Positions 170-64,000 of a DNA stretch of 64,000 nucleotides are shown here, one piece after another. Position 1 is the stretch's first letter. Every line of letters begins with the position of its first letter. The stretch lies in the sequence record PQ843332.1. One strand, written 5' to 3'. A program made the position numbers and the translations under genes. The stretch is from Escherichia phage P-GXEC-L2P5. Below the pieces are notes generated by a model. It had not been told where the DNA came from. It did no database searches and worked only from the letters and a program-made list of their open reading frames with translations.

Positions 170-1746
170 TGCTTAAGTCCTCGTCAGTAGCTTCCGACCA
201 CGCAGGGCGCGGGTCGTCGATTGGTGCTAACACCGGTTTGGCAGGTGCGCGCGTGATTTTATCACACAGCTTCGCCCACACTTTCGGTTTTTCGTCCTTC
301 AGTACCTTCTCGGCATCCGTAGGGCTGAGCAATGTTTCTTTGTACATCACATCGCGCTTGATCCGGGCCTTCGTGAAGATTTCAATAACTTCGCTCTCGT
401 CCGCCCACTTACGGATCCCTTCCTTACCGGCAACCATCTTGAGGCCCAGCGATTCGCCATCGCCCGCTCGCTCTCATCCGCCCACTTACGGATCCCTTCC
501 TTACCGGCAACCATCTTGAGGCCCAGCGATTCGCCATCGCCCGCCATTACCGCTTTGAATACCGCGGACTCGATAGCTTTGATGTGCTGGCGCATTGCGT
601 CCAGGCCTTCATAAGCCTTGCGCAGTTCTGCGGCGGTCATAGCGCCGGGGGCCGCTTCTTTCTTGCCACGCTTAGCACGTCGTGCCGCTTTGCGGGCTTC
701 GCGGGCCATATTGCGGTCGTGATTGGCGCATTCTTCCTCTGTCGCAATACTCACGTCGTCGCCCAGGTCTTCGTCTGTTGCCGTTGGTGGGGTCATCGTG
801 TCGATTGCAGCCTTAGCGCGGGCGCTACACTGATCCGCAAATCTGCACCACTGACACGCATCAACGCTCGGTCGGAAGTCGGCACGGGTTAGTCCCTTTT
901 TGCCGCGGGCGTACGCTTCCAGGGCGGCGATAGCACGCTTGGACGCAAACTTCGCGAATATCTCCAGGGCTTCTACCGAAATATCCCACTCCGACGCCCC
1001 GCCGCAATACGGCTGGAAGATAACCAGGCGCACGGTCGTAATGTCGTACATGGTTTTCAGCTTGCGCAGCAGGCCCAGCGCATACAACATAAGCTGTTTG
1101 TTTTCTTTCGCCTCGACCTTATGCCACCCAGTCTTCAGGTCGCCAACAATCAGCATGTACGTACCGTCGGTCTTCTTCATGACCATGACCATATCTGCAG
1201 TACCGAACGTCTTAACCCGGTTGCCGTCGATCTCGTAGTCTGAGTGAAGGACGCGGGTCAGATCGGCGCGCATCTCAAGCTGGACAAACTCTGCCACTTC
1301 GAGGAGCGGTCGCCACCTGAGTGAAGGACGCGGGTCAGATCGGCGCGCATCTCAAGCTGGACAAACTCCGCCACTTCGAGGAGCGGTCGCCAGTGGTCGA
1401 TGTACGCGTCGCACTGTTTCACCATGTCGTCGTTGACCAGTACGCCGCCTTTCGGCGCTTTCGGGTGCGCCTTTACTGGCCCCTTGCCTTCATTCTCGAC
1501 GTAGCACCCTTTGTACGTCTTCGCGGTTATCATCTTCTCACCGGCAATGATGCGGTTGAGCACGACTTCAGATACGGTGTGCATACTCGTACCGTTAATC
1601 GCCGCTTGCCCGGATTCGTTCGGGATATCTTTTTCCACCACCAGGGCGGCGGGGCAACCCATCCATTTTTTAGACCCGGACGGGCCGAGTAATGAATGCT
1701 CCGTGTTGCTACCGGATTGCGTTTTACGTTTTGGTTTAATCGCCAT
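162..1746 (-). CDS. DUF2800-type PD-(D/E)XK nuclease (Cas4/RecB-like); frame broken by tandem duplications 391..544 and about 1240..1392
   Basis: N-terminus LLGPSGSKKWMGCPA, IVGDLKTG...K core, C-terminal CQWCRFADQC cysteine cluster; the intact unit-2 fragment is a single 391-aa ORF. Confidence 0.7.
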
Positions 1747-1822
1747 TATTCCACCCGTGTAAACTGTAATGAGTGTTCTGTATTGCTACCGGATTGCGTT
1801 TTACGTTTTGGTTTAATCGCCA

Positions 1823-2002
1823 TTATTCCACCCGTGTAAACTGGACAATTACATATTTCACATTAGCCTTGCCCGCTTTTTCGCCGCGGCGCTTAACTTC
1901 ATTTTGTGCGTCCGCAAAGCAATTGCTTTCGTTGGTGTTTTCAACAATAAAAGAGCAATGGTCGTCTAATTTGTGGCATGTTGCCAGGACGAAGAATTTC
2001 AT
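1823..2002 (-). CDS. small hypothetical protein (59 aa)
   Basis: Hand-translated MKFFVLATCH...; GGGAGA RBS; TAATG stop/start overlap with the upstream gene; diverged homolog in unit 2. Confidence 0.4.
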   Translation of the reverse strand: MKFFVLATCHKLDDHCSFIVENTNESNCFADAQNEVKRRGEKAGKANVKYVIVQFTRVE

Positions 2003-2253
2003 TATTTTGTCTCCCAGCGGTCAATTGTTCTTGCTTCTGATGCAACGGCGAAGCGAACATATTCCAGATTGGAATCGGCCCAAATATAAAAGTCGGGATT
2101 AGTAAAGGTGGTGCGCTTAATTTGCGCGGGGGTGTTGCGGCGTTTGTCTATTACAGCCACGCGCGACCGAAAATTGCCGATGCGTTCGAATAGCCAATAA
2201 TATGGGCGTTGGTCGCGGGAGTCCACCGCCTCGATTAGCGTGAAGCGTGCCAT
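2002..2253 (-). CDS. hypothetical protein (83 aa)
   Basis: ORF conserved in unit 2 (51623..51874). Confidence 0.55.
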   Translation of the reverse strand: MARFTLIEAVDSRDQRPYYWLFERIGNFRSRVAVIDKRRNTPAQIKRTTFTNPDFYIWADSNLEYVRFAVASEARTIDRWETK

Positions 2254-2301
2254 TGTCTCGTCCTCTAAAAAGAGGCCCGCTAATATGCGGGCCGGATAAT
2301 A

Positions 2302-2427
2302 TTAATCTTCACCGCCGAGTTGTTTATAAACCTCGTCCGGGTCGTCGCCTCTTTCTTCGCAGAAGGCGGTGAATGCCGCCCAATTTTCTGCTATGAAATC
2401 GAGCATGATTCTCATTTCATAGTCCAT
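2302..2427 (-). CDS. small hypothetical protein (41 aa)
   Basis: Hand-translated MDYEMRIMLDFIAENW...; start directly after the upstream stop; conserved in unit 2. Confidence 0.35.
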   Translation of the reverse strand: MDYEMRIMLDFIAENWAAFTAFCEERGDDPDEVYKQLGGED

Positions 2428-2431
2428 GATA

Positions 2432-2950
2432 TTAGTCTTCCAGTTCGAAATAAGTCTCGACGATTTCTTTTAAATCTTTGTGGAAGTCTTCGACGTCGTC
2501 GTCTTCCAGCTTGGCGATTGATTTGATCTCGAACGCTTCCAGCAGGTCGTCAAATTCGTCGTTAGCATCGTCGTCATCACCACCGGCGATAATCGCGGCA
2601 TACTGTTTGATTTCGTCGCGCATCTCTGCCAGCGGATCGGCATCTTTCTTACCTTTGCCTTTCGCCGGTGCTTTTTTAGCCTTAGCCGGTTTTTCGTCTT
2701 CGGCGTCTTCGTCGTCGTCATCTTCTACGACTTCTTTTTTGGCCTTACCCTTCGCCGGTGCTTTTTTAGCTTTAGCCGGTTTTTCGTCTTCGGCTTCATC
2801 GTCGCCATCTTCGACAACTTCTTTTTTGGCCTTAGACGGCTTCTTGTCGTCCTGCTTACCAACGGCAGCGCCAACGGTTTCATAATGCTTAGCGATGACT
2901 TCCAGTGCTACTACGCCGCGAGTGATCAGGTTTACGATTTGCTCAAACAT
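2432..2950 (-). CDS. acidic/lysine-rich repeat protein, first gene of the leftward operon
   Basis: Internal in-frame repeat EVVED(D)..EDEKPAKAKKAPAKGK twice, poly-D/E tracts, GGAG RBS. Confidence 0.6.
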   Translation of the reverse strand: MFEQIVNLITRGVVALEVIAKHYETVGAAVGKQDDKKPSKAKKEVVEDGDDEAEDEKPAKAKKAPAKGKAKKEVVEDDDDEDAEDEKPAKAKKAPAKGKGKKDADPLAEMRDEIKQYAAIIAGGDDDDANDEFDDLLEAFEIKSIAKLEDDDVEDFHKDLKEIVETYFELED

Positions 2951-3264
2951 GGTATATCTCCGATTGGTTAAGTTTAGGTGTCGGCAGTTAACTTCGTCGG
3001 TGGCCTTAACATATTGCCAGGTTGCGCGTTCTCCCGTTCGGGTAGTGGACCTGGTTATATAATCACGGTTGGGAATCCTGACACTTCGATCCGGCCCCTG
3101 CGTTGCCCCTCCTTTCGGGTAGTGGACCTGGTTATATAATCACGGTTGGGAATCCTGACACTTCGATCCGGCCCCTGCGTTGCCCCTCTCCAGTTTGCGT
3201 CCTGCATCCTGTCGACGAGGTGAATGATAGATTGGTTGCAGGATGGGTGTCAACAACTAATTTC

Positions 3265-3298
3265 AAAAAAAAAGCGCCGAGGCAAAATGCGACGGCGC
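3265..3298 (-). terminator. rho-independent terminator on the minus strand inside the control region
   Basis: Stem GCGCCG/CGGCGC with 13-nt loop followed on the minus strand by a 9-10 T run; stem conserved in unit 2. Confidence 0.5.
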
Positions 3299-3369
3299 TA
3301 ACCAATAAGAGACAATGAGACGGGAATTATTATTACACGCGTGCGCGCCCGTTTCAATATCCAAAGGAT

Positions 3370-3398
3370 TTGACACCATGCAGTTTTAGGTGTAGTTT
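3370..3398 (+). promoter_or_regulatory. candidate sigma70-like promoter for the rightward operon
   Basis: Perfect TTGACA at 3370..3375, 17-bp spacer, weak -10 TAGTTT; conserved in unit 2. Confidence 0.35.
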
Positions 3399-3429
3399 CG
3401 TTGGTCATTAACCAACAGGAGACTGAATT

Positions 3430-3759
3430 ATGAATATCAAAGAAGCAATTGAAGTGTTATCTAATGCAATCCGCGGCGAAGCGGGTAAATCCTGGTATTA
3501 CACAAATGCGGTGGATACTCTGTTATTTGAAGTGTCCAGATTATCGCGTGCTGAGAAGGAGCTTACCGCGAAGCTGGAATTGCTCAACGGCACGGCAGCA
3601 AGCAAGCTGCAAAAACACAATGAAGAAATGGAAGAATACAAAAAGCAGGTTATCCGTTTGCGCAATGAGGGAAAGTCATGGGCAATGATCGCCGAGTTGA
3701 CCGGAATTAATCAGAGCACAGTGCGCTCCTGGGTACGCAATAATAAAACTTCAAAGTAA
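3430..3759 (+). CDS. HTH DNA-binding regulator
   Basis: C-terminal GKSWAMIAELTGINQSTVRSWV helix-turn-helix; first gene of the rightward operon. Confidence 0.6.
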   Translation: MNIKEAIEVLSNAIRGEAGKSWYYTNAVDTLLFEVSRLSRAEKELTAKLELLNGTAASKLQKHNEEMEEYKKQVIRLRNEGKSWAMIAELTGINQSTVRSWVRNNKTSK

Positions 3760-3846
3760 GGCAACGGCAATGAGCTTGATTAAATTCGCTGTAACACGAC
3801 CCGCTAAAAAAGGCGAAAAAGCCAGGTTCGAAGTAAGGCAACGGCA

Positions 3847-6111
3847 ATGAGCTTAATTAAATTCGCTGTAACACGACCCGCTAAAAAAGGCGAAAAAGCC
3901 AGGGCGGAAAACTTCCAGATGACTACCGAAGAGTTTTTCGAATTTATCAATGATGCGAAAGAAATCTCCTCGGTGCATATCAACAAAACGGAAGATAAAG
4001 CGGAGTATGCGCGCCGCAAGCGTAAGGCTGATGGGATTGTGGCTTATACCAGTGACGGATTACGCCGCAAGACCAGTGCGGTGGATCGCTCGATCCTGTT
4101 CTTCGATATTGACCGTACCGACACCCGCACCCTGCGCCGCTGCCGTAAGGCGTTCATCGACGCGGGACTGGAACATGTATTTCACACCACAACCGGCGAT
4201 CGCCACCCGCTGAAAGGTGGCACGCGTTGCGCTCGTTTCCTGGTGCTCACTGACAAGCCTGTACCGGCTGAAGACCTGGGCCGCGTCCAGTATGCACTAT
4301 TACACCAACTGGGCCTGTCAGATGTGGACTTCGACGATTGCACGAAAGACACAAACCGCCTTATGTACCTGCCTCACCAGCAATCGGTTGTTAAGTGTCA
4401 CTACGGCAAACGTGCCCGCGTCCGTCGTCTGCTTCGCCTGGCTGATAAGCTGGGAGTGGAAAAAGAGGAAGTACGCCGCGAGCTTACCCATGGCGACGAC
4501 GCAGTGGCAGACGGCATTCTGGACTGGTGCTTCCAGGCCGGATTCGAGGAGTTATCTTCTGGTCGCGGTTATGAAGTGCCGTGCCCGAACGAACATCTGC
4601 ATAGTGGCGAAGGGTCCACCGCTATCATGGTTAAGGATGGCGAGATCCGTTTCAAGTGTATGCACACCGGCAACGAGTGCTGTTCCGAACTGAACAGACA
4701 CCAGCACCTGGCGCTACGTCTTATCGGGATCCCGGACCACCTGAACGTCGAACCGCACAACATGTCACGTAAGCAAATCGCCGCCATCCTCCCAGGACTG
4801 GACGACGAGGAAGTGGAATCGTGCTATGCGCATATCGTTGATGCGGTCGGAGACGGCGACGAGTACGGCGGATGTACGGACGCAGACTTGGACAACGAGC
4901 CGGTTGCACTGTTCAGCAAGCACGACCCGATCATCGAGGGGTTGATTAACTTTAAATCGACCTGGTATCTTGCCGGTGAGTCGAACATCGGTAAGTCGTT
5001 CTATGTGCTGGGGCAAATGGGTGCGGTTGCCGCGGGGATTCCGTTCGGCGGCGCGAAGGTCGTCCAGTCTCATTGCTTCTATTTCGACGCGGAAGGTGGC
5101 GAAGCCTCCAACCAGCGTAAGGAAGCATTGCAGATTAAATATGAGCACGACCTGGACAAGCTGCACATTATCGATCTGCAATCACGCGGCTGGGATATCA
5201 CCAGCAAATCCGGCTTGCGTGAAGTTATCAGCTTCATCAACCGCACCGCTAACGGCGAGCCGGTTGGCCTGGTGGCGTTCGACTCACTCAACCAGACTGT
5301 TGCGCTGCGGTCCGCCGATGCTAAACCGTTCGACGAGAACAACGCCAGCGATATGGGTGAAGTGGTCAAAGCGCTGAAGGCCATTGCGGAAAATACAGGC
5401 GGCAGTGCGGGCGTCATCCACCACCCGGCGAAGGGTGCAAACGGCAGCAGATCTCCCCGTGGGTCCGGCGCGCTGCATGGCGCTGTCGATTCTGCGTTCT
5501 TCCTCGAGCAACCGGACGACAATCAGCCGGGCCAATTGAACCTGTATCACGAAAAGGCGCGTAACGGCATCAAGCAAGCGCCGCGCGGCTTCGTCCTGCT
5601 CAAGTGCAAGGTTAAGGTGGATCTCCGCAAGTCCGAAGCGTTCGAATCACACCAGTCCACCAGCACCGGGCCTGACTTCGGCGACGTGGTTGCCGGTTGG
5701 GACGTCAAGCCAATTGCATCCACGCCACGCGACGAGACTCTTTATCTCGTACCTGTCGCCCTGGCACCGTTCGCCATCGAACAGGCGAAGGCCGCGGGCA
5801 AGGCCGCAGTTAAGGATGAGAACGCCGCAGGACCGCGCAATGAAAAAGAGAAAGTGCTTTATGCGGCACTGGAAAAACTGATGGAAGATAACCCGGACCA
5901 TACCGGATTCAGTAAATCGGCAATTGTCCGCCAGGCGGGATTGGCAAAAGGTGGCACATCGACGAAGGCAATAGACGATATGGTGGAGCGCGGCGTGCTC
6001 GGTTTTTATACAGATCCGCACACCGGGGCCATCTATGGGTCGTCGAATATCGTCATTAAAACGAATATACCCATCACGCTTTCTGCGACCGATGACGATC
6101 TGAAAGATTAA
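3847..6111 (+). CDS. DNA primase/helicase (AEP primase-polymerase domain plus RecA-like P-loop NTPase)
   Basis: LFFDIDRTD and HVFHTTTG primase motifs; Walker A-like GESNIGKSFYVLG; 754 aa; start region duplicated at about 3770/3847. Confidence 0.85.
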   Translation: MSLIKFAVTRPAKKGEKARAENFQMTTEEFFEFINDAKEISSVHINKTEDKAEYARRKRKADGIVAYTSDGLRRKTSAVDRSILFFDIDRTDTRTLRRCRKAFIDAGLEHVFHTTTGDRHPLKGGTRCARFLVLTDKPVPAEDLGRVQYALLHQLGLSDVDFDDCTKDTNRLMYLPHQQSVVKCHYGKRARVRRLLRLADKLGVEKEEVRRELTHGDDAVADGILDWCFQAGFEELSSGRGYEVPCPNEHLHSGEGSTAIMVKDGEIRFKCMHTGNECCSELNRHQHLALRLIGIPDHLNVEPHNMSRKQIAAILPGLDDEEVESCYAHIVDAVGDGDEYGGCTDADLDNEPVALFSKHDPIIEGLINFKSTWYLAGESNIGKSFYVLGQMGAVAAGIPFGGAKVVQSHCFYFDAEGGEASNQRKEALQIKYEHDLDKLHIIDLQSRGWDITSKSGLREVISFINRTANGEPVGLVAFDSLNQTVALRSADAKPFDENNASDMGEVVKALKAIAENTGGSAGVIHHPAKGANGSRSPRGSGALHGAVDSAFFLEQPDDNQPGQLNLYHEKARNGIKQAPRGFVLLKCKVKVDLRKSEAFESHQSTSTGPDFGDVVAGWDVKPIASTPRDETLYLVPVALAPFAIEQAKAAGKAAVKDENAAGPRNEKEKVLYAALEKLMEDNPDHTGFSKSAIVRQAGLAKGGTSTKAIDDMVERGVLGFYTDPHTGAIYGSSNIVIKTNIPITLSATDDDLKD

Positions 6112-6255
6112 ATCCTGCGCGCATTGGTTGCCGGTATGGGAATTCCCATATCGCTAAAAGGTTAAATTTTGCGCGCATTGGTTGCCATTTTGAGTGTTTT
6201 TATCGGGTCGTATTGGTTGCCGTGTAGTGTAAATATAATGAATAGTTATGCAGTT

Positions 6256-6428
6256 TTATTGCATAAAGTAAGCGGGACAGAAAGCGGGACAAACAAGGGG
6301 CGGGACAAAGCGGGACAGCACCCCCGTCCCGCCCCGTATGGCGCGGCCTGGAGAGGAGCGGGACAGGCGGGACAACCCCCAGTCTTTCAGACTAGACGGG
6401 GGTCAGCGGCCCCCCTCGTCTGAGACTG
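6256..6428. repeat. iteron array: six GCGGGACA direct repeats preceded by TGCATAAA, then a GC-rich imperfect hairpin
   Basis: GCGGGACA at 6272, 6284, 6299, 6310, 6358, 6367; inverted repeat cagtctttcagactagacggggg / cccccctcgtctgagactg. Confidence 0.7.
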
Positions 6429-6645
6429 AATAAAATCCGGGGATTGCAAAATACACGGCAGCATGATGCGAAGTGCGGTCGCGGATGAACTAGGCAACCA
6501 ATGCGAGTTGCATTATGCGAAGTGAAAAATGCGGTTTGCAGTCACAGCAGATAGCGATCAACTTTTTCATGCGCGTGATTAATATTGGTTGCGTTCCGCC
6601 TGGCACCTTGCTATATTGGTTGCACCCCAACATGAGGACTGAACA

Positions 6646-6972
6646 ATGAAAGCGATTATCTGGAATTACGCAATGGCTATGGCGGCGGCACAAGAAGCGG
6701 CGGAGTTCGCCGGTGAAGGAGCGGAAGCGGTCGAAAGACTATCGGCAGCGTGGTCCGTTGTTCGCGTCACGCAGCAGGCCATCGCTTGTATGCTGGAGCG
6801 CCGCTTCGACACGATGGCGGAGATCCAGCCACTGGCGAACGCAATCCAGGACTACGCGCTTGCATTTGCCCGTGAGCGCCTTGCGTATCGCTTCGGGATC
6901 GGCGAGACGGCAGTGACAAACGTCGCCCGGATTAAAGCCCAGCGTGAACTATTCGCCCAGCTTGCGAAATAA
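6646..6972 (+). CDS. hypothetical protein (108 aa, alanine-rich helical)
   Basis: ORF conserved in unit 2 (56423..56749). Confidence 0.55.
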   Translation: MKAIIWNYAMAMAAAQEAAEFAGEGAEAVERLSAAWSVVRVTQQAIACMLERRFDTMAEIQPLANAIQDYALAFARERLAYRFGIGETAVTNVARIKAQRELFAQLAK

Positions 6973-7209
6973 GGGGCCAAAATGAGCCGTTGACGCAGAC
7001 TCGCTACTTGCACCAGTTCGCAGCGCAACACGATTTCAGGGTGCGGACTTCCTTGCAACCAATGGGAATACGCAGACACGCTACTTGCACCAGTTCGCAG
7101 CAAAACACGATTTCAGGGTGCGGACTTCCTTGCAACCAATGGGAATTCGTATTACATTACGCCGGAAGCCCGCCGTTGAGCGGGTAGGCAAACACTGGAG
7201 ACTGAGCAA

Positions 7210-7464
7210 ATGACGCCAATGCAAATAACGCTAATGGCAGGGTATTCGCAGGAGTTTATCGACCTCGTATCCTGCTATGACGACTACACCCATTACGGCA
7301 TCGCTACGGTATGCGACGGCGACAACCTTACAGCCGACGAGCTTGATGAGGTCGACGACTACACTACCGAGGAACTTTGCGCGCTGATGTGCGGCGTGCC
7401 TGTATGGGCGAAAGAGTCCCCACTAGCCGCAGACGGCGACAACATGTACAGGTACAGAAAGTAA
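7210..7464 (+). CDS. small protein whose C-terminal ~45 aa mimic the DNA polymerase C-terminus; absent from unit 2
   Basis: DDYTTEELCALMCGVPVWAKESPLAADGDNMYRYRK versus polymerase DDYTTEELCALMCDLPIWAKGFPLAAEGDCMYRYRK. Confidence 0.5.
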   Translation: MTPMQITLMAGYSQEFIDLVSCYDDYTHYGIATVCDGDNLTADELDEVDDYTTEELCALMCGVPVWAKESPLAADGDNMYRYRK

Positions 7465-7536
7465 GATTATGAAAGCATCGATTAGCAAAACATTAAACTT
7501 CCCCGCAGCACGGTTAAACTTTAAGGAGACAGAACA

Positions 7537-8109
7537 ATGAAATTACTATTCCGCCGTAAGCACGATGGCCGTATCCTGAAGCCGATCCAAACCCTGGATT
7601 CCCACGTCCGCTTACAAAACGCGGCTGGCGGTCGGGTGTGGTGGGCAAAGAAATACACGCTGCCGGAAAACTTCGACGTACTAACTCACGATATCGAGCG
7701 CGGCGATGTGCTGCGTGATATTCGCGACGGCGGATTGTGGGTCGTCGAGTATGTCGGCCGTCATGGCCTGCGTATGCAATCCCGCAAGGATGGCGTAGTG
7801 GGTAACATACAGAGGGGTATGACGTACTTTGGGCTAATCAACTACGAGCGAGTGGGGCGCAAGTACAGCCTGCGCGACCGCCAGCCTCATGAGCGCGTTG
7901 AGTTCCGCAAGTCGCAGCCCGCGTATGCCACTTACGACGCGAGCAAAGTGATGGAGCCGATCCGCCAGGCCACGCGTGAGATAGTCAATCGCTTTGATGC
8001 CGTGACGAATGCACAGCGCCAGGCGCGGGAATACGGTGTGGGATTTATCCGTGTCGAACCAGACGGCAGCATGAAGGCCATCGACCCGCGCTCGGTGATT
8101 ATGAAATGA
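7537..8109 (+). CDS. hypothetical protein (190 aa)
   Basis: ORF with GGAGA RBS; conserved in unit 2 (57025..57567). Confidence 0.55.
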   Translation: MKLLFRRKHDGRILKPIQTLDSHVRLQNAAGGRVWWAKKYTLPENFDVLTHDIERGDVLRDIRDGGLWVVEYVGRHGLRMQSRKDGVVGNIQRGMTYFGLINYERVGRKYSLRDRQPHERVEFRKSQPAYATYDASKVMEPIRQATREIVNRFDAVTNAQRQAREYGVGFIRVEPDGSMKAIDPRSVIMK

Positions 8110-8252
8110 GTGCGTCTATCCGTGATATGCTCATGCACAACCGCTTTGAGATAGGCGGTCGGGTGTTTCGCAATTACTTCGTGGCGCGTGCATGGGCGCG
8201 CCATATTGGCAAACCGGAAGGGGCAATTCGATGCTATACGTCTTCGCGGTAG
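8106..8252 (+). CDS. small hypothetical protein (48 aa)
   Basis: ATGA overlap with the upstream stop; conserved in unit 2. Confidence 0.3.
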   Translation: MSASIRDMLMHNRFEIGGRVFRNYFVARAWARHIGKPEGAIRCYTSSR

Positions 8253-8316
8253 TATGTGGCGGTAGTCTGGCGGCCCTGGTGCTGTTGGCGTCGGTTATTA
8301 GTCTGGTTAAATACCT

Positions 8317-8616: not shown

Positions 8617-8668
8617 TTATGCAAGCGTGATATAGTCCCAGTGAGCTAAAACTTACTGGGACTTTTTT

Positions 8669-9007: not shown

Positions 9008-9031
9008 CGTGTATGCGCCGGGGGGCGCAAA

Positions 9032-9755: not shown

Positions 9756-9771
9756 TACGAGGGGACACGAT

Positions 9772-9939: not shown

Positions 9940-9946
9940 ACAATCA

Positions 9947-9971
9947 AGCCCGGATAATACCGGGCTTTTTA
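9947..9971 (+). terminator. rho-independent terminator
   Basis: AGCCCGG-ataata-CCGGGCT followed by TTTTTAT. Confidence 0.75.
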
Positions 9972-53463: not shown

Positions 53464-55959
53464 ATGAGCTTAATTAAATTCGCTGTAACACGACCCGCTA
53501 AAAAAGGCGAAAAAGCCAGGGCGGAAAACTTCCAGATGACCACCGATGAATTTTTCGAATTTATCAATGATGCGAAAGAAATCGCGAAAAAGCCAGGGCG
53601 GAAAACTTCCAGATGACCACCGATGAATTTTTCGAATTTATCAATGACGCGAAAGAAATATCATCGGTGCATATCAACAAGACCGAGGATAAAGCGGAGT
53701 ATGCGCGCCGCAAGCGTAAGGCCGATGGCATCGTAGCGTATACCAGTGACGGCTTACGCCGCAAGACCAGCGCGGTGGACCGCTCGATCCTGTTCTTTGA
53801 TATTGACCGCACCGACACTCGCACCTTACGCCGCTGCCGTAAGGCGTTCATTGACGCGGGTCTGGAACACGTATTCCACACAACCACCGGCGACCGCCAC
53901 CCGCTTAAAGGCGGCACGCGTTGCGCTCGCTTCCTGGTACTCACTGATAAGCCGGTCCCGGCTGAAGACCTGGGCCGTGTCCAGTATGCGCTATTACATC
54001 AACTTGGTCTGTCGGATGTGGACTTCGACGATTGCACGAAAGACACAAACCGCCTGATGTACCTGCCGCACCAGCAATCGGTTATTAAGTGCCACTACGG
54101 CAAACGTGCCCGCGTCCGTCGTCTGCTTCGCCTGGCGGATACGCTTGGCGTGGAGAAGGAAGAAGTACGCCGCGAGCTTACCCAGGGCGACGACGCAGTG
54201 GCGGACGGGATTCTGGACTGGTGCTTCCAGGCAGGATTCGAGGAGTTATCTTCCGGTCGCGGTTATGAAGTGCCGTGCCCGAACGAACATCTGCACAGCG
54301 GCGAAGGGTCGACGGCTATCATGGTCAAGGATGGCGAGATCCGTTTCAAGTGTATGCACACCGGCAACGAGTGTTGCTCTGAGCTGAACAGACACCAGCA
54401 CCTGGCGCTACGTCTTATCGGGATACCGGACCACCTGAACGTCGAGCCGCACAACATGTCACGTAAGCAAATCGCCGCCATCCTCCCAGGGCTGGACGAC
54501 GAGGAAGTCGAATCCTTATATGAACATATTGTTGATGCGGTTGGCGACGGCGAAGAATACGGCGTGTGCACCGATGCGGATCTGGATAACGAGCCGGTCG
54601 CACTGTTGTTGATGCAGTTGGCGACGGCGAAGAATACGGCGTGTGCACCGATGCGGATCTGGATAACGAGCCGGTCGCACTATTCAGTAAGCACGACCCG
54701 ATCATCGAAGGCCTGGTCAACTTCAAATCGACCTGGTACATGGCTGGCGAGTCGAACATCGGTAAATCGTTCTACGTGCTGGGCCAAATGGGCGCGGTTG
54801 CCGCGGGGATTCCGTTCGGCGGTGCGAAGGTCGTCCAGTCTCATTGCTTCTATTTCGACGCGGAAGGTGGCGAAGCCTCCAACCAGCGTAAGGAAGCATT
54901 GCAGATCAAATATGAGCACGACCTGGACAAGCTGCACATTATTGACCTGCAATCACGCGGCTGGGATATCACCAGCAAATCAGGCTTGCGTGAAGTTATC
55001 AGCTTCATCAACCGCACCGCTAACGGCGAGCCGGTTGGCCTGGTGGCGTTCGACTCACTCAACCAGACTGTTGCGCTGCGGTCCGCCGATGCAAAACCGT
55101 TCGACGAGAACAACGCCAGCGATATGGGCGAAGTGGTCAAAGCGCTGAAGGCCATTGCGGAAAATACAGGCGGCAGTGCGGGCGTCATCCACCACCCGGC
55201 GAAAGGTGCAAACGGCCGCAGATCTCCCCGTGGGTCCGGCGCGCTGCATGGTGCTGTCGATTCTGCGTTCTTCCTGGAGCAACCGGACGACAACCAGCCA
55301 GGTCAATTGAACCTGTATCACGAAAAGGCACGTAACGGCATCAAGCAAGCGCCGCGCGGCTTCGTCCTGCTCAAGTGCAAGGTTAAGGTGGATCTCCGCA
55401 AGTCCGAAGCGTTCGAAGCCCACCAGTCCACCAGCACCGGGCCAGACTTCGGCGATGTGGTTGCCGGTTGGGACGTCAAACCAATTGCGTCCACCCCGCG
55501 CGACGAGACTCTATACCTCGTACCGGTAGCCCTGGCACCGTTCGCGATAGAACAGGCGAAGGCGGCGGGCAAAGCCGCAGTTAAGGAAGAGAACACCGCC
55601 GGTCCGCGCAACGAAAAAGAGAAAGTGCTTTATGCGGCCCTGGAAAAACTGATGGCAGATAACCCTGACCATACTGGATTCAGTAAATCGGCAATTGTAC
55701 GCCAGGCGGGACTCGCTAAGGGTGGCACTTCGACGAAGGCAATAGACGATATGGTCGAGCGCGGCGTGATTGGTTTCTATACAGATCCGCACACCGGGGC
55801 CATATATGGGTCGTCGAATTTAGTCATCAAATCTGATATCCCCTGATTGGTTTCTATACAGACCCGCACACCGGGGCCATATATGGGTCGTCGAATTTAG
55901 TCATCAAATCGGAGATCCCCATAACGCTTTCGGCGACCGATGACGACCTGAAAGACTAA
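53464..55959 (+). CDS. unit 2: DNA primase/helicase; frame broken by duplications
   Basis: ORFs 53613..55148 and 54641..55846 homologous to 3847..6111. Confidence 0.8.
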
Positions 55960-56030
55960 ATCCTATTTTGAGTGTTTTTAGCTGGTCGCATTGGTTGCCG
56001 TGCAGTATAAATATAGTGAATAGTTATGCA

Positions 56031-56210
56031 ATAAAACTGCATAAAGTAAGCGGGACAAAAAGCGGGACAAACTTGGGGCGGGACAAAGCGGGACAGCACC
56101 CCCGTCCCGCCCCGGATGACGCGGCCTGGAGAGGAGCGGGACAGGCGGGACAACTCCCAGTCTTTCAGACTAGACGGGGGTCAGCGGCCCCCCTCGTCTG
56201 AGACTGCATA
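56031..56210. repeat. unit 2: GCGGGACA iteron array plus GC-rich hairpin
   Basis: Same TGCATAAA / GCGGGACA / hairpin architecture as 6256..6428. Confidence 0.7.
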
Positions 56211-56422
56211 AAATCCGGGATTGCAAAATACACGGCAGCACATTGGAAATCGCGGTCGTCGATGAACTGGGCAACCAATGCGAGTTGCAGAATGTGGTGT
56301 GAAAAATGCAGTTTGCAGTCACAGCTGATAGCGATCAACTTTTTCATGCGCATGATTAATATTGGTTGCATTCATGCCAGCACCCTGCTAGATTGGTTGC
56401 ACACCAACATGAGGGCTGAACA

Positions 56423-56749
56423 ATGAAAGCGATTATCTGGAATTACGCAATGGCTATGGCGAAGGCACAAGAAGCGGCGGAGTTCGCCGGGGAGGGGGCG
56501 GAAGCAGTAGAGAGACTATCGGCAGCGTGGTCCGTTGTTCGCGTCACGCAGCAGGCCATCGCCTGTATGCTTGAGCGCCGCTTCGACACGATGGCGGAGA
56601 TCCAGCCGTTGGCGAACGCTATCCAGGACTACGCGCTTGCATTTGCCCGTGAACGCCTGGCGTATCGCTTCGGGATCGGAGAGACGGCAGTGACAAACGT
56701 TGCCCGGATTAAAGCCCAGCGTGAGCTATTCGCCCAGCTTGCGAAATAA
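56423..56749 (+). CDS. unit 2: hypothetical protein (homolog of 6646..6972)
   Basis: ORF, 108 aa. Confidence 0.55.
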   Translation: MKAIIWNYAMAMAKAQEAAEFAGEGAEAVERLSAAWSVVRVTQQAIACMLERRFDTMAEIQPLANAIQDYALAFARERLAYRFGIGETAVTNVARIKAQRELFAQLAK

Positions 56750-57024
56750 GAGGCCAAAATGACCCGTAGACGCGCAAAACAGCTTTCGTGGCATATCCCC
56801 CTGCATTGCATACGAATATGGGCTAAGAATGCGAATGCGGGGGACTCTGTGTACTGGTGCTATCGCGACGACGTTAAGCCGTTGACGCAGACTCGCTACT
56901 TGCACCAGTTCGCCGCGCAACATGATTTCTATGTGCGGACCTCCTTGCAACCAATGGGGATCCGTATTACATTACGCCGGAAGCCCGCAGTCGAGCGGGT
57001 AGGCAAACACTGGAGACTGAGCAA

Positions 57025-57567
57025 ATGAAATTACTATTCCGCCGAAAATCAGATGGCCGCATTCTTAAGCCAATACAGACCCTTGACACCCATGTGCGAC
57101 TTCACCACGCCGCAAGCGATCGTGTCTGGTGGGCGAATAAGGCAAAGCTGCCGGAGAAATACGAAATCCTCACGCATGATATTGAGCGCGGCGATGTGCT
57201 GCGTGATATTCGCGACGGGCAATTGTGGGTCGTTGAGCACACCAGCCAGCACGGCTTGCGTATGCAAACCCGCAAGGGCGGAGTAGTGGGTAACATACAG
57301 AGGGTTATGACGTACTTCGGGCTAATCCACTACGAGCGCGTGGGGCGCAAATACTGCCTGCGCAACCGCCAGCCTCATGAGCGCGCAACCTACGACTCCC
57401 ACCAGGTGCAAGCGAAGATGGGCCGCGCCGTACACCAAATCGTCAATCGCTTTGATGCCGTGACGAACGCACAACGCCATGCGCAGGAATACGGTGTTGG
57501 ATTCATCCAGGTGGAACGAGACGGCAGCATGAAAGCCATCGACCCGCGCTCGGTGATTCTGAAATGA
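57025..57567 (+). CDS. unit 2: hypothetical protein (homolog of 7537..8109)
   Basis: ORF, 180 aa. Confidence 0.55.
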   Translation: MKLLFRRKSDGRILKPIQTLDTHVRLHHAASDRVWWANKAKLPEKYEILTHDIERGDVLRDIRDGQLWVVEHTSQHGLRMQTRKGGVVGNIQRVMTYFGLIHYERVGRKYCLRNRQPHERATYDSHQVQAKMGRAVHQIVNRFDAVTNAQRHAQEYGVGFIQVERDGSMKAIDPRSVILK

Positions 57568-57710
57568 GTGCGACGATCCGTGATATGCTTCAGCACAACC
57601 GCTTTGAGATAGGCGGTCGGGTGTTTCGCAATTACTTCGTGGCGCGTGCATGGGCGCGCCATATTGGCAAACCGGAAGGGGCAATTCGATGCTATACGTC
57701 TTCGCGGTAG
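57564..57710 (+). CDS. unit 2: small hypothetical protein (homolog of 8106..8252)
   Basis: ATGA overlap conserved. Confidence 0.3.
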   Translation: MSATIRDMLQHNRFEIGGRVFRNYFVARAWARHIGKPEGAIRCYTSSR

Positions 57711-57774
57711 TATGTGGCGGTAGTCTGGCGGCCCTGGTGCTGTTGGCGTCGGTTATTAGTCTGGTTAAATACCT

Positions 57775-58074
57775 ATGGGGCAGATTATGATTCATGATGT
57801 GATTTATTGGTTTGGTATGGCCAGCATGTTATGCCTGGTTACGGGAGTGCTGGGCGCAATATGGGTATTCCTGGTATGGCCTGCGGTGGAAGCTGCCAGC
57901 ATTACCCGGATGACATTCGAGATCTACAAGCGCCGTGGAATAACGGAGCACCCGACCAGGCTTCGGATGTGGTGGCTGTGGTATCGGGATATGATAGGCG
58001 GTCGAACATTCGAAGCCGTCCGCTCATCCGGGTGGGAGTGGAAAGGCGTCGGCAAGTTGTCCGTTTTCGATTAA
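57775..58074 (+). CDS. unit 2: small membrane protein
   Basis: Identical in protein sequence to 8317..8616. Confidence 0.45.
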   Translation: MGQIMIHDVIYWFGMASMLCLVTGVLGAIWVFLVWPAVEAASITRMTFEIYKRRGITEHPTRLRMWWLWYRDMIGGRTFEAVRSSGWEWKGVGKLSVFD

Positions 58075-58203
58075 TTATGCAAGCGTGATATAGTCCCAGT
58101 GAGCTCGGGTGGGAGTGGAAAGGCGTCGGCAAGTGGTCCGTTTTCGATTAATTATGCAAGCGTGATATAGTCCCAGTGAGCTAAAACTTACTGGGACTTT
58201 TTT

Positions 58204-58494
58204 ATGGATAAGCTAAACGAGTGGCTATTCGCCCTGGCATGTCTGGCGGGTGGCTTCGTAGGCGCACGCATTCATGGTGAGGCTACGAAGGGGCCGCTAA
58301 ACTTCGTTTTGTATGTTGTAGTTGGCTTCCTGTGTGCCATATTTGGCGCACCGGCTATTGCCGAGTGGGCTGGTTTGTCGGGTGAGCGCACTGTCGCCGG
58401 TTTGGGCTTCGTAACTGCGATCTTCTGGATGCCAATCGCCGACCGGATCAGGGAGACTATTGCGTCGTTCCGACTTCCGGGGGGCGCAAAATGA
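58204..58494 (+). CDS. unit 2: holin-like membrane protein
   Basis: 96-aa ORF ending with ATGA overlap into the next gene. Confidence 0.5.
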   Translation: MDKLNEWLFALACLAGGFVGARIHGEATKGPLNFVLYVVVGFLCAIFGAPAIAEWAGLSGERTVAGLGFVTAIFWMPIADRIRETIASFRLPGGAK

Positions 58495-58736
58495 TTATCT
58501 CCGTCCTGTTGTTTGTTATCATCGGGGCTTCGTCCCTGTTTAACGTGTATGCGCCGTCCGTCCGGGATGGCATTTTCGGTCGGGTGCTGTATCTGTTAAC
58601 GGCAATGGTCTGTATTATCGGATTGTTGCAAACAGGAGACGTATCGGATACCACCTGGACCGCGTTAATCTGGCTGTTTGCATTGCGCACCCTGCGTAAT
58701 GCTGTTTTAAATGGGGTAAAACATGCGATTCAGTGA
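58491..58736 (+). CDS. unit 2: small membrane protein
   Basis: Homolog of 9032..9277. Confidence 0.5.
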   Translation: MIISVLLFVIIGASSLFNVYAPSVRDGIFGRVLYLLTAMVCIIGLLQTGDVSDTTWTALIWLFALRTLRNAVLNGVKHAIQ

Positions 58737-58799
58737 TAACGGTCTTCTGGCTGTTTGCATTGCGCACCCTGCGTAATGCTGTTTTGAATGGGGTAAAAC

Positions 58800-59445
58800 A
58801 TGCGATTCAGTGATAACGGTCTACGATTTACGGCAGCCTGGGAGGCTTTCAGCCCGGTGCCGTATTTCGCGACCAAGAAAGAGCAGGCCCGCGGCCTGTA
58901 CACCTGGGGCTATGGTCACAGGCTTTCAGCCCGGTGCCGTATTTCGCGACCAAGAAAGAGCAGGCCCGCGGCCTGTACACCTGGGGTTATGGTCATACCG
59001 GCACTAATCCGCCTCGAAGCATTACCCGCGAGGAAGCGCTGGCACTGCTCAAGCGCGATGTGGCGTATGCTGAGGACTGGGTTAACAAATACGCACATCC
59101 GAGCATTAACCAGGCGCAATTCGACGCGCTGGTGGACCTGGTAATCAACGCCGGTCCGGGTCCGATCGTACCGGATGACGTCGCGAATGATTTCGATGAT
59201 GCGGTGTGGTGGACCTGGTAATCAACGCCGGTCCTGGTCCGATCGTACCGGATGACGTCGCGAATGATTTCGATGATGCGGTACGGTTGGGCGACTGGGC
59301 GAAGGTCCGTGCTACGCTGCCGCAGTTCCGCAAGCAAGGCGGCGAAGTGCTTAAGGGTCTGGTACGCCGTGCAATCGGCAGACAGGCGTTGTTTGATGGT
59401 AAGCAGTGGGACGTTGCCGAACGAATCGGTCGTAACGCTGCATAA
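58800..59445 (+). CDS. unit 2: GH24 endolysin; frame broken by duplications
   Basis: ORFs 58934..59221 and 59206..59445 carry the GYGHTG and NQAQFDALVDLVINAG motifs. Confidence 0.75.
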
Positions 59446-59461
59446 TACGAGGTAACACAGT

Positions 59462-59629
59462 ATGTTAAAAAGTATTCTTGATCATAATGCGGACGCGCTT
59501 GCTGCACTGGCTAAAACCGAAGATCCGGGCGCTCGCGCTATCATCGCGGACTCTATAAACCACGCTGGGGTCTTCGATGCGAAGCTGCCTAGCCCACCAC
59601 CGCAGGAGGAATCTGGTCCTGCAGCGTAA
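59462..59629 (+). CDS. unit 2: small hypothetical protein (homolog of 9772..9939)
   Basis: ATG 59462; same proline-rich C-terminus. Confidence 0.3.
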   Translation: MLKSILDHNADALAALAKTEDPGARAIIADSINHAGVFDAKLPSPPPQEESGPAA

Positions 59630-59943
59630 ACAATCAAGCCCGGGGGGTCTTCGATGCGAAGCTGCCAAGCCCACCACCGCAGGAGGAATCTGGTCCTGCA
59701 GCGTAAACAATCAAGCCCGGAATTAACCGGGCTTTTTATTGCTTGACTTGCAACCAACATAGACTCTATACTGCGACCAATCAACGAGAGGAGTAATCAA
59801 GATGGCACGTAAAGATATTTGGGTATTAGCGATCTGGACCACCACGGCTTTTATCGACATGGTTATTTGCGAATTGATATAGCCCGCCGCCATACGGACC
59901 GTGGTATATTGTCCGCGGTCCACTAATCAGGAATTAATTAAAT

Positions 59944-61163
59944 ATGCACCCGCAAACTAAAATTACCGATGAGCAATTGATCGCAGAAATTCAGGAAGGG
60001 ACTACAGTTAAAGAGATTGCGAAGAAGTACGGCATCGCACTTCGAAATGTCTATATGCGCAAAGCCCGCCTGTCTAAAAAGGGGATTGGTCACGGCAATG
60101 ATGCAGTGATCCGTAAGCGCGTTGCCGATGGTTTTGGTGTTAAGCGCGTATCGGCCCTGGTACGCGGCAATGGCGAAGAGGTCATGTCGTGGGTCATCAC
60201 TGAGCAGGACAAAGAGCGCCAACTCGAAGCCATGCGCGCTGTTGCAATGGCGAAGAGGTCATGTCGTGGGTCATCACTGAGCAGGACAAGGAGCGCCAAC
60301 TCGAAGCCATGCGCGCTGTTGTCGAGGGTATGAACAGCGAAATCACACCGGCAGCGCCCGTAAACGCCACGCCAGTCCCGATTCAGGCGCTCGACTTGCT
60401 CAACCTGTACACAGTGTCCGACTTCCACCTGGGTATGCTGGCGTGGGGCGAGGAGACTGGCGAAGACTGGGATATGGCGATTGCTGAAGACCTGTTCTAC
60501 CGCTGGTTTGTCGAAGCCTTCGCCCGCGCACCGGACGCAGGAACTGCCGTTATCAATATCCTCGGGGATATGGCCCACTTTGATAGCCTTGATGCCGTCA
60601 CACCGGCAAGCGGTCACGTACTGGACGCCGACACACGATACCAGAAGTTGGTCCGCTATATGATTCGCATGGTGCGCAACGTGGTTGACCTGGCGCTGCA
60701 AAAACACCACAAAGTAAAACTGCTAATCGTCCAGGGTAATCATGACGAGTCGGGCATGATTTGGCTTGCTGAGATGTTCAATACCCTGTATGAGAACGAG
60801 CCGCGCGTCGATGTGGACACGTCCCCGGACGTCTACAAAATGGTGCAGCACGGTAAGACCACGCTATTTTTCCACCACGGGCACAAAGCGCGATTCGATG
60901 TTATCGAGCAGGTTATGATCGCTAAATTCAGACAGGCGTTCGGGGCGAGCGAATACAGCTACGCGCACGTAGGCCATTTGCACCACCAGAAGATTGTTGA
61001 ATCCCGCAACATGATTGTCGAACAGCACAGGACGCTCGCAGCGAAAGACGCCTACGCCAGTCGTGGCGGCTGGATGAGCGGTCGCAGCGCAAACGTCATC
61101 ACCTATAGCGCCAACTACGGAGAAGTAGCGCGCTTAACCATTAGCCCGGAAATGTTGAAGTAA
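59944..61163 (+). CDS. unit 2: HTH-metallophosphoesterase fusion; one duplication near 60170..60290
   Basis: ORFs 59944..60333 and 60261..61163 are contiguous when collapsed; all phosphoesterase motifs present. Confidence 0.7.
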
Positions 61164-61349
61164 CGGCGACCCGTAACCAGCCCAGCCTGCCGATTTGGTG
61201 GGCTTTTTTGTGCCTGTTATAATCCCCGTTAGATGGCAGGGCCGTCTCCTATGTTGCCGATGGCTGCCGATTTGGTGGGCTTTTTTGTGCCTGTTATAAT
61301 CCCCCTTAGATGGCAGGGCCGTCTCCTATGTTGCCGATGGTCGGCGCAT

Positions 61350-61922
61350 ATGAACAAAAGGGCATATATCATGGCAGAAATCAAAGTTAAGGGCCGACGC
61401 GCCAAACTGGACGGACGAGTAGCAGTTACCCCGCGCCGTAAACCAGGCGAGCAAACCGAGCATACCAATCTCGGACCTGAAATCGAGTACGGAAAGCGCC
61501 GTAAAGGCGGCAAATGTGGACGCCCTACGGACTACCGATCCGTTTACTGCGACCAGCTTCGCCGCTATTTTGCCGACGCCGACGCCTGGCAGGTCAACTA
61601 CTCCGATAAAGGCGCTGCGCAAGTAATCCCCCGCAACAAAATGCCAACCTTTGGTCGATTTGCCGCGGAAATCGGTGTGGGCGTAGCTTGCCTGTATCGC
61701 TGGGCGCGCGCACATGAGGAGTTCGCCGAGGCGATGGCGGATGCTATGGAGTTGCAGAAAACTTTCCTGATGGAAGCTGGTGGCGTAACCATCGCGGCGG
61801 GCTTCGCTACGTTCCTGCTTAAAGCAAACCACGGCGTCCGCGACGATGTACCGCTGGACGACGACGAAGATGATAACGGCGACGTCGTTGTGGAACCTAC
61901 CGGCAAAGGTCAGGGTGATTAA
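61350..61922 (+). CDS. unit 2: terminase small subunit
   Basis: Homolog of 11856..12428; N-terminal MNKRAYIMAEIK conserved. Confidence 0.65.
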   Translation: MNKRAYIMAEIKVKGRRAKLDGRVAVTPRRKPGEQTEHTNLGPEIEYGKRRKGGKCGRPTDYRSVYCDQLRRYFADADAWQVNYSDKGAAQVIPRNKMPTFGRFAAEIGVGVACLYRWARAHEEFAEAMADAMELQKTFLMEAGGVTIAAGFATFLLKANHGVRDDVPLDDDEDDNGDVVVEPTGKGQGD

Positions 61923-63384
61923 TGCGTAACTATGCGGCAGAACACCGCGCACTGGAACGCGCGATCGCAAAGCGCAACCGACCACCACGCCCCACACGCG
62001 TTGCGCAGGCTGTGCGTCTTTACCAGCCAGATTGCCTTCCTCACCAGGTTGAACTACTGCGCGACACGAAGACTAAAATCCTCGGCCTGTGTTCCGGCTT
62101 CGGCGGTGGCAAGTCATGGGTTGCCGCACGTAAGGTCATCCAGCTTCTGACACTTAACCCTGGTTATGACGGCATCGTGACCGAACCGACTATTCCACTC
62201 CTGGTCAAAATCATGTACCCGGAACTGGAGAAGGCATTCGACGAGGCTGGCTTACGGTGGAAGTTCAATAAGCAGGACAAGATCTACAACGTGCTGGTGA
62301 AAGGCAAATGGACTCGCGTTATCTGTGAGTCAATGGAGAACTATACCCGCCTGATCGGGGTCAACGCCGCGTGGATTGTTGCCGACGAGTTCGACACCAC
62401 GAAACAAGACGTCGCAATGGCGGCATACCACAAATTGCTCGGTCGTCTGCGTGCGGGCTTCGTCCGCCAGTTTGTCATCGTGTCCACGCCGGAAGGCTAC
62501 CGGGCGATGTATCAAATATTCGAGGTGGAGAAGGGTAGCCAGAAGCGCCTGATCCGGGCGAAGACCACGGACAACCACCATTTACCGGCAGACTTTATCG
62601 ACACGCTGCGCAGTCAGTACCCGGCTAACCTGATTGATGCGTACCTGAACGGCCTGTTTGTTAACCTTACGTCGGGCGCGGTGTACAAGATGTTCAACCG
62701 CGAGGAGAACGCCAGCACCGAAGAAGTGCAGCCGGACGACACGCTGATTATCGGTATGGACTTTAACGTCACGAAAATGGCGGCGGTTGTGTATGTCAGA
62801 CGGCAGCGCATCACCGAGAACAAGGAGTTCCGCGACGAGATCCACGCAGTGGATGAATTTGTGGACCTGTTTGACACCCCGGCTATGATTGAGGCGATCG
62901 AGGAGCGCTACCCGGAACATTGTGCCGCCGGTAGGGTCGTCGTTTACCCGGATAGCAGCGGCAAATCCCGCAAGACGGTCAACGCGTCGTCGTCCGATAT
63001 CGCACAACTGGAAGACGCGGGCTTCGAGGTGGAGTATGACAGCGTTAACCCGCCTGTGAAAGACCGATTGATCGCGATGAATACGATGATGTGCAACTCG
63101 AAGGGCGTGCGCCAGTATTTGTTAACCCGCCTGTGAAAGACCGATTGATTGCGATGAATACGATGATGTGCAACTCGAAGGGCGTGCGCCAGTATTTTGT
63201 CAACCTGGATAAATGCCCTACACTAGCGAAATGTCTGGAACAGCAGGTTTACGACCTGAAGAAAGGCGAGCCGGATAAAACCGCCGGGGTGGACCACATG
63301 AACGATGCCGCGGGCTACCCTATTGCGCACTTGTTCCCTGTGATTCGTCCGATCGCCGTTGTTCCAACTGTAGACTTCTACTAA
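61922..63384 (+). CDS. unit 2: terminase large subunit; frame broken by duplication near 63050..63180
   Basis: Walker A GFGGGKS, Walker B IVADEFD. Confidence 0.85.
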
Positions 63385-63395
63385 GGAAACCGACC

Positions 63396-64000
63396 ATGAC
63401 CGTTAACGTTGACAACCAGCACCCGCTCTATGCGCGCATAGCGCCAGAGTGGAAAATGATCCGTGACTGCGTAGCAGGGGAGCGCGCCGTGAAGGCGTGC
63501 GGGCCATTGTACCTGCCACACCCCGCAAGCGGGGACACCACCGACCCGAAATCACGGGCACGCTATAAGGCATATAAGCAACGCGCTGTCTTCCTGAACG
63601 CCACCGCCCGCACACTGAATGCGCTGTTAGGTGTCGCCTTCGCCAAACCGGTGAGTATGGACCTTTCCGGGGCAATGGCTGACCTGATTGATGACGTAGA
63701 CGGCAGCGGGATGCCACTGGCGCAACTACTGCGCGGCGCTATGTCGGAAGTGCTGCAATCAGGCCGTGCCGGTTTTATGGTGGACTACGACCGCCAGGCG
63801 CATTTTGACGAACTGGGTAACGTAGTGCCGCAGACCGCCGCTGAAATGGCGGCACACCGCCCGCTTATCCGCCTGTATACGGCTGAACAGATCATCAACT
63901 GGCGGCGCAGACCGCCGCTGAAATGGCAGCACACCGCCCGCTTATCCGCCTGTATACGGCTGAACAGATCATCAACTGGCGGCAGACCCACGGGGTAGAC
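63396..64000 (+). CDS. unit 2: portal protein, 5' part (runs off the window end)
   Basis: Homolog of the 13901 start; duplication near 63830..63960. Confidence 0.55.

Follow-up and report, generated by a model that had tools for sequence, protein, structure and literature searches.

The 64,000-nucleotide (nt) stretch of DNA analyzed here, from Escherichia phage P-GXEC-L2P5 (sequence record PQ843332.1; hereafter the window, to whose full length all coordinates refer), carries 65 tandem duplications of two copies each, and in all 65 the period is exactly 77 nt. We consider it very probable that these duplications are an assembly artefact, produced when pieces of related Dhillonvirus genomes that overlapped by a fixed k of 77 were joined untrimmed. 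That they are an artefact of joining overlapping pieces is well supported, and it is reasonable to infer that the pieces came from a SPAdes-type graph with k = 77. The duplications are not biological and belong to no phage genome. A preliminary description of this DNA had already put scattered tandem duplications down to sequence construction or assembly error, as no natural process was expected to produce them; this holds, given the fixed 77 nt, the single copy in relatives, the chimeric backbone and an out-of-frame protein tail without counterpart, all documented below. Not seen at that stage were the constant length, its match to a common assembler k, and the other-strain alleles within the copies.

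Duplications were listed from Tandem Repeats Finder (TRF) arrays together with exact delimitation of the copy boundaries. TRF reported about 65 arrays of period 77 across the whole window, with 2.0 copies and 94–100% matches. An independent shift scan, in which the window was compared with itself at shifts of 10–399, gave near-perfect matches at 77, and at 154 where two events overlap; the remaining hits were trivial low-complexity matches at shifts of 17 or less, and no other period between 18 and 399 gave any hit in the window. Tandem duplication throughout the window is thus borne out by both approaches, and the eleven examples named in the preliminary description are all present within a few bases (e.g. 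391-467/468-544, 1239-1392, 3750-3903, 17061-17214 and 63829-63982). The repeat length of 60–80 base pairs given there needs correction to 77 in every case, and the range of 0–2 mismatches to 0–4: 11 copy pairs are identical, 23 differ at one position, 23 at two, five at three and three at four. Events start 90–4,665 nt apart (mean 991) and together amount to 65 x 77 nt = 5,005 nt of duplicated sequence. Their junctions delimit 66 pieces of 89–4,667 nt, none of which is shorter than 78 nt (k + 1). Two pairs of junctions are only 120 and 89 nt apart, and because the pieces between them (24980-25099 and 48662-48750) are so short, the duplications there overlap; a TRF call of three copies at 48585-48817 corresponds to the overlapping events around the 89-nt piece. 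Finally, the same scan found no period-77 duplication in ten reference Dhillonvirus genomes (~443 kb), versus 65 in the window, and a chance origin of the events is therefore excluded.

The 65 duplications, each of 77 + 77 nt, are:

391..544, 1 mismatch; slur06 has a single copy
1239..1392, 2 mismatches; copy 2 carries unit-2/other-strain alleles (units are defined below)
1689..1842, 4 mismatches at intervals of 3; copy 2 matches the EP23-like unit 2 exactly
3034..3187, 1 mismatch
3750..3903, 2 mismatches; copy 2 is an exact EP23 77-mer
6993..7146, 3 mismatches
8944..9097, identical copies; branch vertex in the reference k = 77 graph
10463..10616, 2 mismatches
10977..11130, 2 mismatches
11598..11751, 2 mismatches
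13549..13702, 3 mismatches; same site as 63044
13915..14068, 2 mismatches
15050..15203, 2 mismatches
15435..15588, 4 mismatches; copy 2 is an exact HK578 77-mer
16290..16443, 2 mismatches
17061..17214, 1 mismatch
18804..18957, 1 mismatch
19278..19431, 1 mismatch
19625..19778, 2 mismatches
19873..20026, 1 mismatch
21626..21779, 2 mismatches
22008..22161, 1 mismatch
22212..22365, 1 mismatch; switch from slur05-like to Envy-like sequence
23255..23408, 1 mismatch
23608..23761, 4 mismatches
24239..24392, 2 mismatches
24903..25056, 2 mismatches; overlaps the 25023 event (120-nt piece)
25023..25176, identical copies; switch to SO-1-like sequence
25829..25982, 1 mismatch
27504..27657, 2 mismatches; copy 1 is a YD-2008.s 77-mer, copy 2 an SO-1 77-mer
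28226..28379, 2 mismatches
30823..30976, identical copies
31755..31908, 2 mismatches
33412..33565, 1 mismatch
37800..37953, identical copies; branch vertex (2,2) in the reference graph
38442..38595, identical copies
38610..38763, 3 mismatches, two of them at an ambiguous boundary
39068..39221, 2 mismatches
39470..39623, 2 mismatches
39838..39991, identical copies
40284..40437, 2 mismatches
41422..41575, identical copies
41707..41860, identical copies
42064..42217, identical copies
43647..43800, 1 mismatch
43918..44071, 2 mismatches
48585..48738, 1 mismatch; overlaps the 48674 event (89-nt piece)
48674..48827, 1 mismatch; switch to EP23-like sequence
49454..49607, identical copies
50941..51094, 3 mismatches
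51331..51484, identical copies; last 77-mer common to units 1 and 2 before they diverge
52369..52522, 1 mismatch; within a natural period-90 repeat region
52918..53071, 1 mismatch
53506..53659, 2 mismatches
54527..54680, 2 mismatches; helicase-primase gene frameshifted
55767..55920, 3 mismatches
58029..58182, 1 mismatch
58669..58822, 1 mismatch
58842..58995, 2 mismatches
59129..59282, 2 mismatches
59567..59720, 1 mismatch
60167..60320, 1 mismatch
61187..61340, 1 mismatch; switch from EP23-like to YD-2008.s-like sequence
63044..63197, 1 mismatch; terminase large subunit truncated
63829..63982, 1 mismatch

Comparison with relatives shows that each reference genome has a single copy at every one of these sites. 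When the window was aligned to slur06 and SO-1 by BLAST, the alignments broke at every junction and the reference coordinate stepped back by exactly 77; window 1-467, for example, corresponds to slur06 24871-25337, and window 468-1315 to slur06 25261-26108. The duplications were likewise found in none of ~170 related records, whose alignments fragment at these sites. We then collapsed the window by deleting one copy at each site, which removed all 5,005 duplicated nucleotides. The resulting 58,995-nt sequence aligns to the references in long unbroken blocks (collapsed positions 1-16,885 align to slur06 at 99.5%), and the collapsed unit, as estimated from alignment coordinates, measures ~45.9 kb, a normal Dhillonvirus size. 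The duplications therefore behave as assembly artefacts generally do: they are absent from near-identical genomes, and removing them restores both colinearity and reading frames.

The effect on genes is severe, since 77 = 3 x 25 + 2 and a junction inside a gene shifts its frame. As a test set we took 137 reference open reading frames (ORFs) of at least 150 amino acids (aa) from slur06, SO-1 and EP23, and asked whether at least 95% of each was covered by a single ORF. Only 52 of the 137 passed in the window, and 105 did so after collapse, in agreement with the earlier view that the duplications split otherwise intact genes and that gene calls should assume their collapse: it brings back colinearity and full-length ORFs alike. 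Single-ORF coverage of four proteins changed as follows:

tail fibre (1,116 aa), 0.47 in the window, 1.00 collapsed
tape measure protein (880 aa), 0.62 in the window, 1.00 collapsed
portal, 0.72 in the window, 1.00 collapsed
terminase, 0.87 in the window, 1.00 collapsed

Besides these four, the disrupted genes include a PD-(D/E)XK nuclease and one copy of the helicase-primase. In the latter case the ORF at 53613-55148 (511 aa) starts with 330 genuine N-terminal aa of helicase-primase and continues, out of frame, with a 181-aa tail created by the junction at 54604. This tail was covered by none of 5.8 billion proteins, matches extending at most over the genuine 65% of the ORF, and all the helicase-primase homologues found are intact proteins of 747–756 aa.

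The underlying DNA is that of a Dhillonvirus (an HK578-like E. coli siphophage), as seen from colinear nucleotide similarity to type members (HK578, SO-1, EP23 and others). It does not, however, follow any one of them. Instead, five blocks could be distinguished:

1..22288, slur05/slur06-like; ~99.5% once collapsed, with many piece bodies at 100%
22289..25022, Envy/Sloth-like; ~99.6%
25023..48661, mostly like Sodalis phage SO-1; pieces at 96.7–100%, with stretches from YD-2008.s, SSL-2009a and JL1-like genomes
48662..61263, like Shigella phage EP23; 97–99.9%
61264..64000, like Escherichia phage YD-2008.s; ~99.5%

Short stretches in the window match SSL-2009a, JL1, HK578 and EK99P-1. The window thus spans ~1.3 genome lengths and consists of near-exact copies of at least five published genomes in genome order. 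From ~49.7 kb onward it makes a second pass (unit 2) over the region already covered by 1–14.3 kb (in unit 1), and this second pass comes from a different strain, at 79–97% identity: unit 2 matches EP23 and YD-2008.s and not slur05, so that it is neither a same-genome concatemer nor a direct terminal repeat. The duplications had been said to fall at different places in the two units. This is mostly so, except that a unit-1 site is no more than 100 nt away from 6 of the 16 unit-2 sites, and that the sites at 13549 and 63044 are the same; the coincidence is marginal (P ~0.06).

Outside the junctions, 96.7% of the 31-mers and 90.5% of the 78-mers of the window are present in at least one of ten published genomes, and only 30 of the 5,005 junction-spanning 78-mers are. 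Because no more than 30 of ~59,000 collapsed positions (0.05%) carry a base absent from all ten references, the data suggest that the input was those very published genomes, possibly as simulated data. Searches for the window itself were negative. No match was found for a junction-specific 40-mer in viral, genome and metagenome contig collections, for a 65-mer with two private bases in viral or metagenome collections, or for bases 1-8000 in E. coli genome or plasmid collections; no record was found for two window-specific proteins, and a 180-aa window protein matched only the EP23 record. No single published genome matches the window throughout, and it is a mosaic, not an isolate.

In practical terms these results are a matter of quality control only: any gene calls, protein predictions, repeat analyses or claims of strain novelty made on the window are corrupted, through 65 frameshifting false duplications (5,005 nt), a backbone chimeric for at least five genomes, and a length that runs past one genome. 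Collapse at the 65 sites is advised ahead of any gene calling and restores normal Dhillonvirus genes, but the product of collapse is no less a mosaic and is not to be used as a genome. Tandem repeats whose period is constant and matches a common assembler k (55, 77, 99, 127) would make a cheap automatic flag for artefacts of this kind.

To characterize the duplications further, we compared the two copies of each pair. They differ at 96 sites in all, and at most of these both bases are alleles of different reference genomes; the copies, in other words, carry alternative haplotype alleles. Several of the mismatches are linked and spaced by 3 nt, as at 1689, where four transitions convert copy 2 to the EP23-like sequence of unit 2. 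Often the deviating copy has the allele common to all other genomes, and its partner one that is private to the genome dominant in that part of the window. In deviating copies, about 18 bases were seen in no reference, with transitions about as frequent as transversions, and by our own estimate from counts such novel, error-like bases are ~10-fold enriched in the deviating copy relative to the rest of the window. The mismatches are concentrated toward one edge of the unit (offsets 0–10 hold 41 of the 96, in our own tally from the alignments) and foreign alleles extend up to ~30 nt past the 77-nt overlap into the piece body; therefore, every piece has one low-confidence end of roughly 100 nt. 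For each junction we also asked which copy is closer to the main reference of the block:

slur05 block, copy 1 closer at 21 junctions, copy 2 at 0; mismatches to slur05 are 0 in copy 1 and 41 in copy 2
Envy block, copy 1 closer at 4, copy 2 at 1
SO-1 block, copy 1 closer at 3, copy 2 at 5, with 11 ties
EP23 block, copy 1 closer at 1, copy 2 at 8
YD-2008.s block, copy 1 closer at 3, copy 2 at 0

Random in-silico mutation of an inserted copy was ruled out as the source of the mismatches, the differing bases being natural alleles that are often linked and spaced by 3. Differences between slur05 and slur06 were likewise ruled out as the cause of the breaks, as these genomes differ at only 4 window positions.

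The constant length, the lack of any piece below 78 nt and the mosaic of related genomes together point to a fixed 77-nt overlap that was not trimmed. For reads of ~150 nt, SPAdes by default goes up to a k of 77. SPAdes gap closing and scaffolding, MEGAHIT, IDBA-UD, COBRA, Phables, PenguiN, seed-and-extend assemblers and generation by a language model were all considered as possible sources, and none of them is asserted. The pieces would have been drawn from a mixture of closely related Dhillonvirus genomes near-identical to slur05/06, Envy, SO-1, EP23 and YD-2008.s, so that the input was probably a pool of these genomes, possibly simulated. A de Bruijn assembler with k = 77 would presumably have made the pieces: such a program is expected to break where related genomes share sequence or where strains vary, leaving neighbouring contigs or edges with an overlap equal to the largest k. 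If the path or scaffold was then written out without overlap trimming, each piece would begin exactly 77 nt before the end of the previous one and the common 77 nt would appear twice. As observed, one end of each piece (roughly its last 100 nt) has other-strain alleles or error-like bases, and the neighbouring piece has the alleles of the locally dominant genome. Some support for breaks at graph branches comes from a k = 77 de Bruijn graph of the ten reference genomes, a proxy for the actual strain set, in which junction 77-mers were branch vertices in 6/48 and 9/46 cases versus 1.1% of all window 77-mers.

Among known phenomena, the duplications come nearest to the maxK overlaps at the ends of de Bruijn contigs. 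Phage contigs with 77-bp identical ends have been documented for SPAdes (PMC9409062), and assemblers of the de Bruijn type stop where genomes have sequence in common or where a population varies internally, so that maxK end overlaps are left behind (COBRA paper, PMC10914622). Like the overlaps left by SPAdes, metaSPAdes or MEGAHIT, the duplications have a constant length equal to a usual k, appear to be sited where related genomes share sequence, and give the correct genome when one copy is removed. Unlike them, they are internal, tandem and 65 to a single sequence instead of lying at the ends of separate contigs, and 54 of the 65 are imperfect where a maxK overlap is exact. A second parallel is offered by false ‘heterotype’ duplications, in which an assembly retains alternative haplotypes next to one another, with an excess of erroneous k-mers (Ko et al. 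2022, PMC9516828). Here too the copies are alternative alleles of one locus, with false gene structures, frameshifts and an enrichment of erroneous k-mers; however, heterotype duplications run to kilobases, vary in length and are usually separated by a gap, whereas these are always 77 nt and adjoin directly, with no N in the window. Finally, the length of more than one genome and the path switches between related genomes recall chimeric or concatemeric mixed-strain viral contigs, although the usual concatemer artefact repeats the same genome and the second pass here is of a different strain. In its collapsed form the window resembles Dhillonvirus genomes themselves, being colinear with slur06, SO-1, EP23, Envy and YD-2008.s.

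Several observations weigh against the simplest form of an origin in untrimmed k = 77 overlaps. The proxy graph has no branch at most of the junction 77-mers. Adjoining edges of a strict de Bruijn graph overlap exactly, but 54 of the 65 pairs carry 1–4 mismatches, and because of this an extra step is needed, be it polishing, piece ends of low confidence, or the joining of homologous vertices by gluing. Reference polymorphism just outside the unit is only weakly raised (0.31 at +77 versus 0.21 background), and segment-wise changes in identity were not significantly tied to junctions in a chi-square comparison with circular shifts; in a local-contrast shift test the SO-1 block gave 107/2,000, and slur06 showed no effect. 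Judged from the run lengths of missing 31-mers, dozens of haplotype switches occur within pieces between variants less than 31 nt apart, and such switches could not arise in a k = 77 graph built from these ten genomes alone. In all five blocks, when the pieces are read in the same orientation as the deposited record, it is their 3' ends that deviate (orientation in the window: slur05 -, Envy -, SO-1 +, EP23 +, YD-2008.s -). This bias is not expected from a strand-symmetric assembler working on real paired reads, and the process may have been directional or in silico, for instance one that used one-strand simulated reads with error-prone 3' tails. Lastly, no reads, assembly graph or contig name were found.

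The 3' bias also bears on the possibility that the window was constructed directly in silico, deliberately or incidentally and with no conventional assembler involved, by stitching together tiles of Dhillonvirus records from GenBank/RefSeq, or of reads simulated from such records, with overlaps of 77 nt in alignment coordinates. Such a string may have been made as a test construct or by a custom script that walks a graph, and we regard it as unlikely on balance. The five backbone genomes were all published early, and the isolates differ in laboratory, host and country of origin (slur05; Envy, isolated from human bladder; SO-1, of a tsetse symbiont; EP23, on Shigella; YD-2008.s, obtained from goat faeces in Malaysia). 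The database genomes that rank next are far less similar, and the very low fraction of bases absent from the ten references would follow naturally. So would the way in which the deviating end tracks the orientation of the deposited record, an overlap of exactly 77 even where the copies mismatch, as if defined by coordinates, and the failure to find the window in searchable sequence collections. Less in keeping with copied records are the novel error-like bases at piece ends, which resemble read-derived tips, the enrichment of branch vertices among junction 77-mers and the irregular piece lengths (89–4,667 nt). The two explanations overlap: simulated reads passed through an assembler fit both, and the duplications are non-biological either way. 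Slightly less probable still, in our estimation, is that identical k-mer overlaps were present at first and one copy was later altered by polishing, that is, by correction with mixed-strain reads. Eleven pairs are still identical and the differing bases are real alleles of other strains, as this would predict, but the foreign alleles that continue into the piece body, the linked alleles that switch together (e.g. the four sites at 1689) and the one-sided pattern over whole blocks (21:0 in the slur05 block), which reads mapped to equivalent copies would not produce, all argue otherwise. For the same reasons, namely alleles past the overlap and one-sided blocks, polishing was judged unlikely as the sole source of the mismatches.

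Genuine tandem duplication in phage DNA, by replication slippage or in a real recombinant concatemer from a mixed infection, is so improbable that we take it to be effectively refuted. Phages do replicate through concatemers, and beyond that nothing speaks for it except the presence of the duplications in the text. Neither slippage nor recombination gives one and the same length every time, as seen in all 65 events; 77 is not divisible by 3, and the resulting frameshifts in essential genes would be lethal; the duplications are absent from the ten references and the ~170 related records; the two copies carry alleles of different strains; and units 1 and 2 are different genomes. We attach equally negligible weight to the idea that the string reflects physical DNA of another kind, either a hetero-concatemer produced by recombination between several Dhillonviruses in a co-infected culture or designed fragments with 77-nt homology arms, in which case the duplications, or the 1.3-unit structure with its several strains, would be present in vitro.

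Other repeats were seen in the window in addition to the 77-nt events. An imperfect tandem repeat with a period of ~90 and 90% matches with indels occurs at 2661-2834 and 52337-52522 and is apparently coding. Since the slur06 alignment crosses the region unbroken, this repeat is apparently a natural one, distinct from the 77-nt artefacts; in unit 2 it also holds the artefact junction at 52369. The intergenic regions 6247-6433 and 24808-24979 (also 56038-56211) are ~86% alike, and the first two correspond to ‘repeat region A/B’ of SO-1, annotated there as direct, inverted and palindromic repeats. TRF also reported a period-79 array at 24676-24841.

The DNA polymerase I ORF (45215-48403, - strand) encodes 1,062 aa, compared with 763 aa in slur06. 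The difference is an in-frame insertion of ~300 aa with no Pfam match, and an internal ORF is present at 46161-46919 (- strand). SO-1 is annotated in this region with a polymerase ‘containing a type I self-splicing intron’ and the embedded ORF gp39, and EP23 as encoding one 1,062-aa protein. Finally, the unannotated 35-kb record of Campylobacter phage A144 (MG065648.1) is 95.6% identical to 22366-24979, and single Acinetobacter and Salmonella phage records also match this coliphage genus; these records may be mislabelled or represent contaminants.

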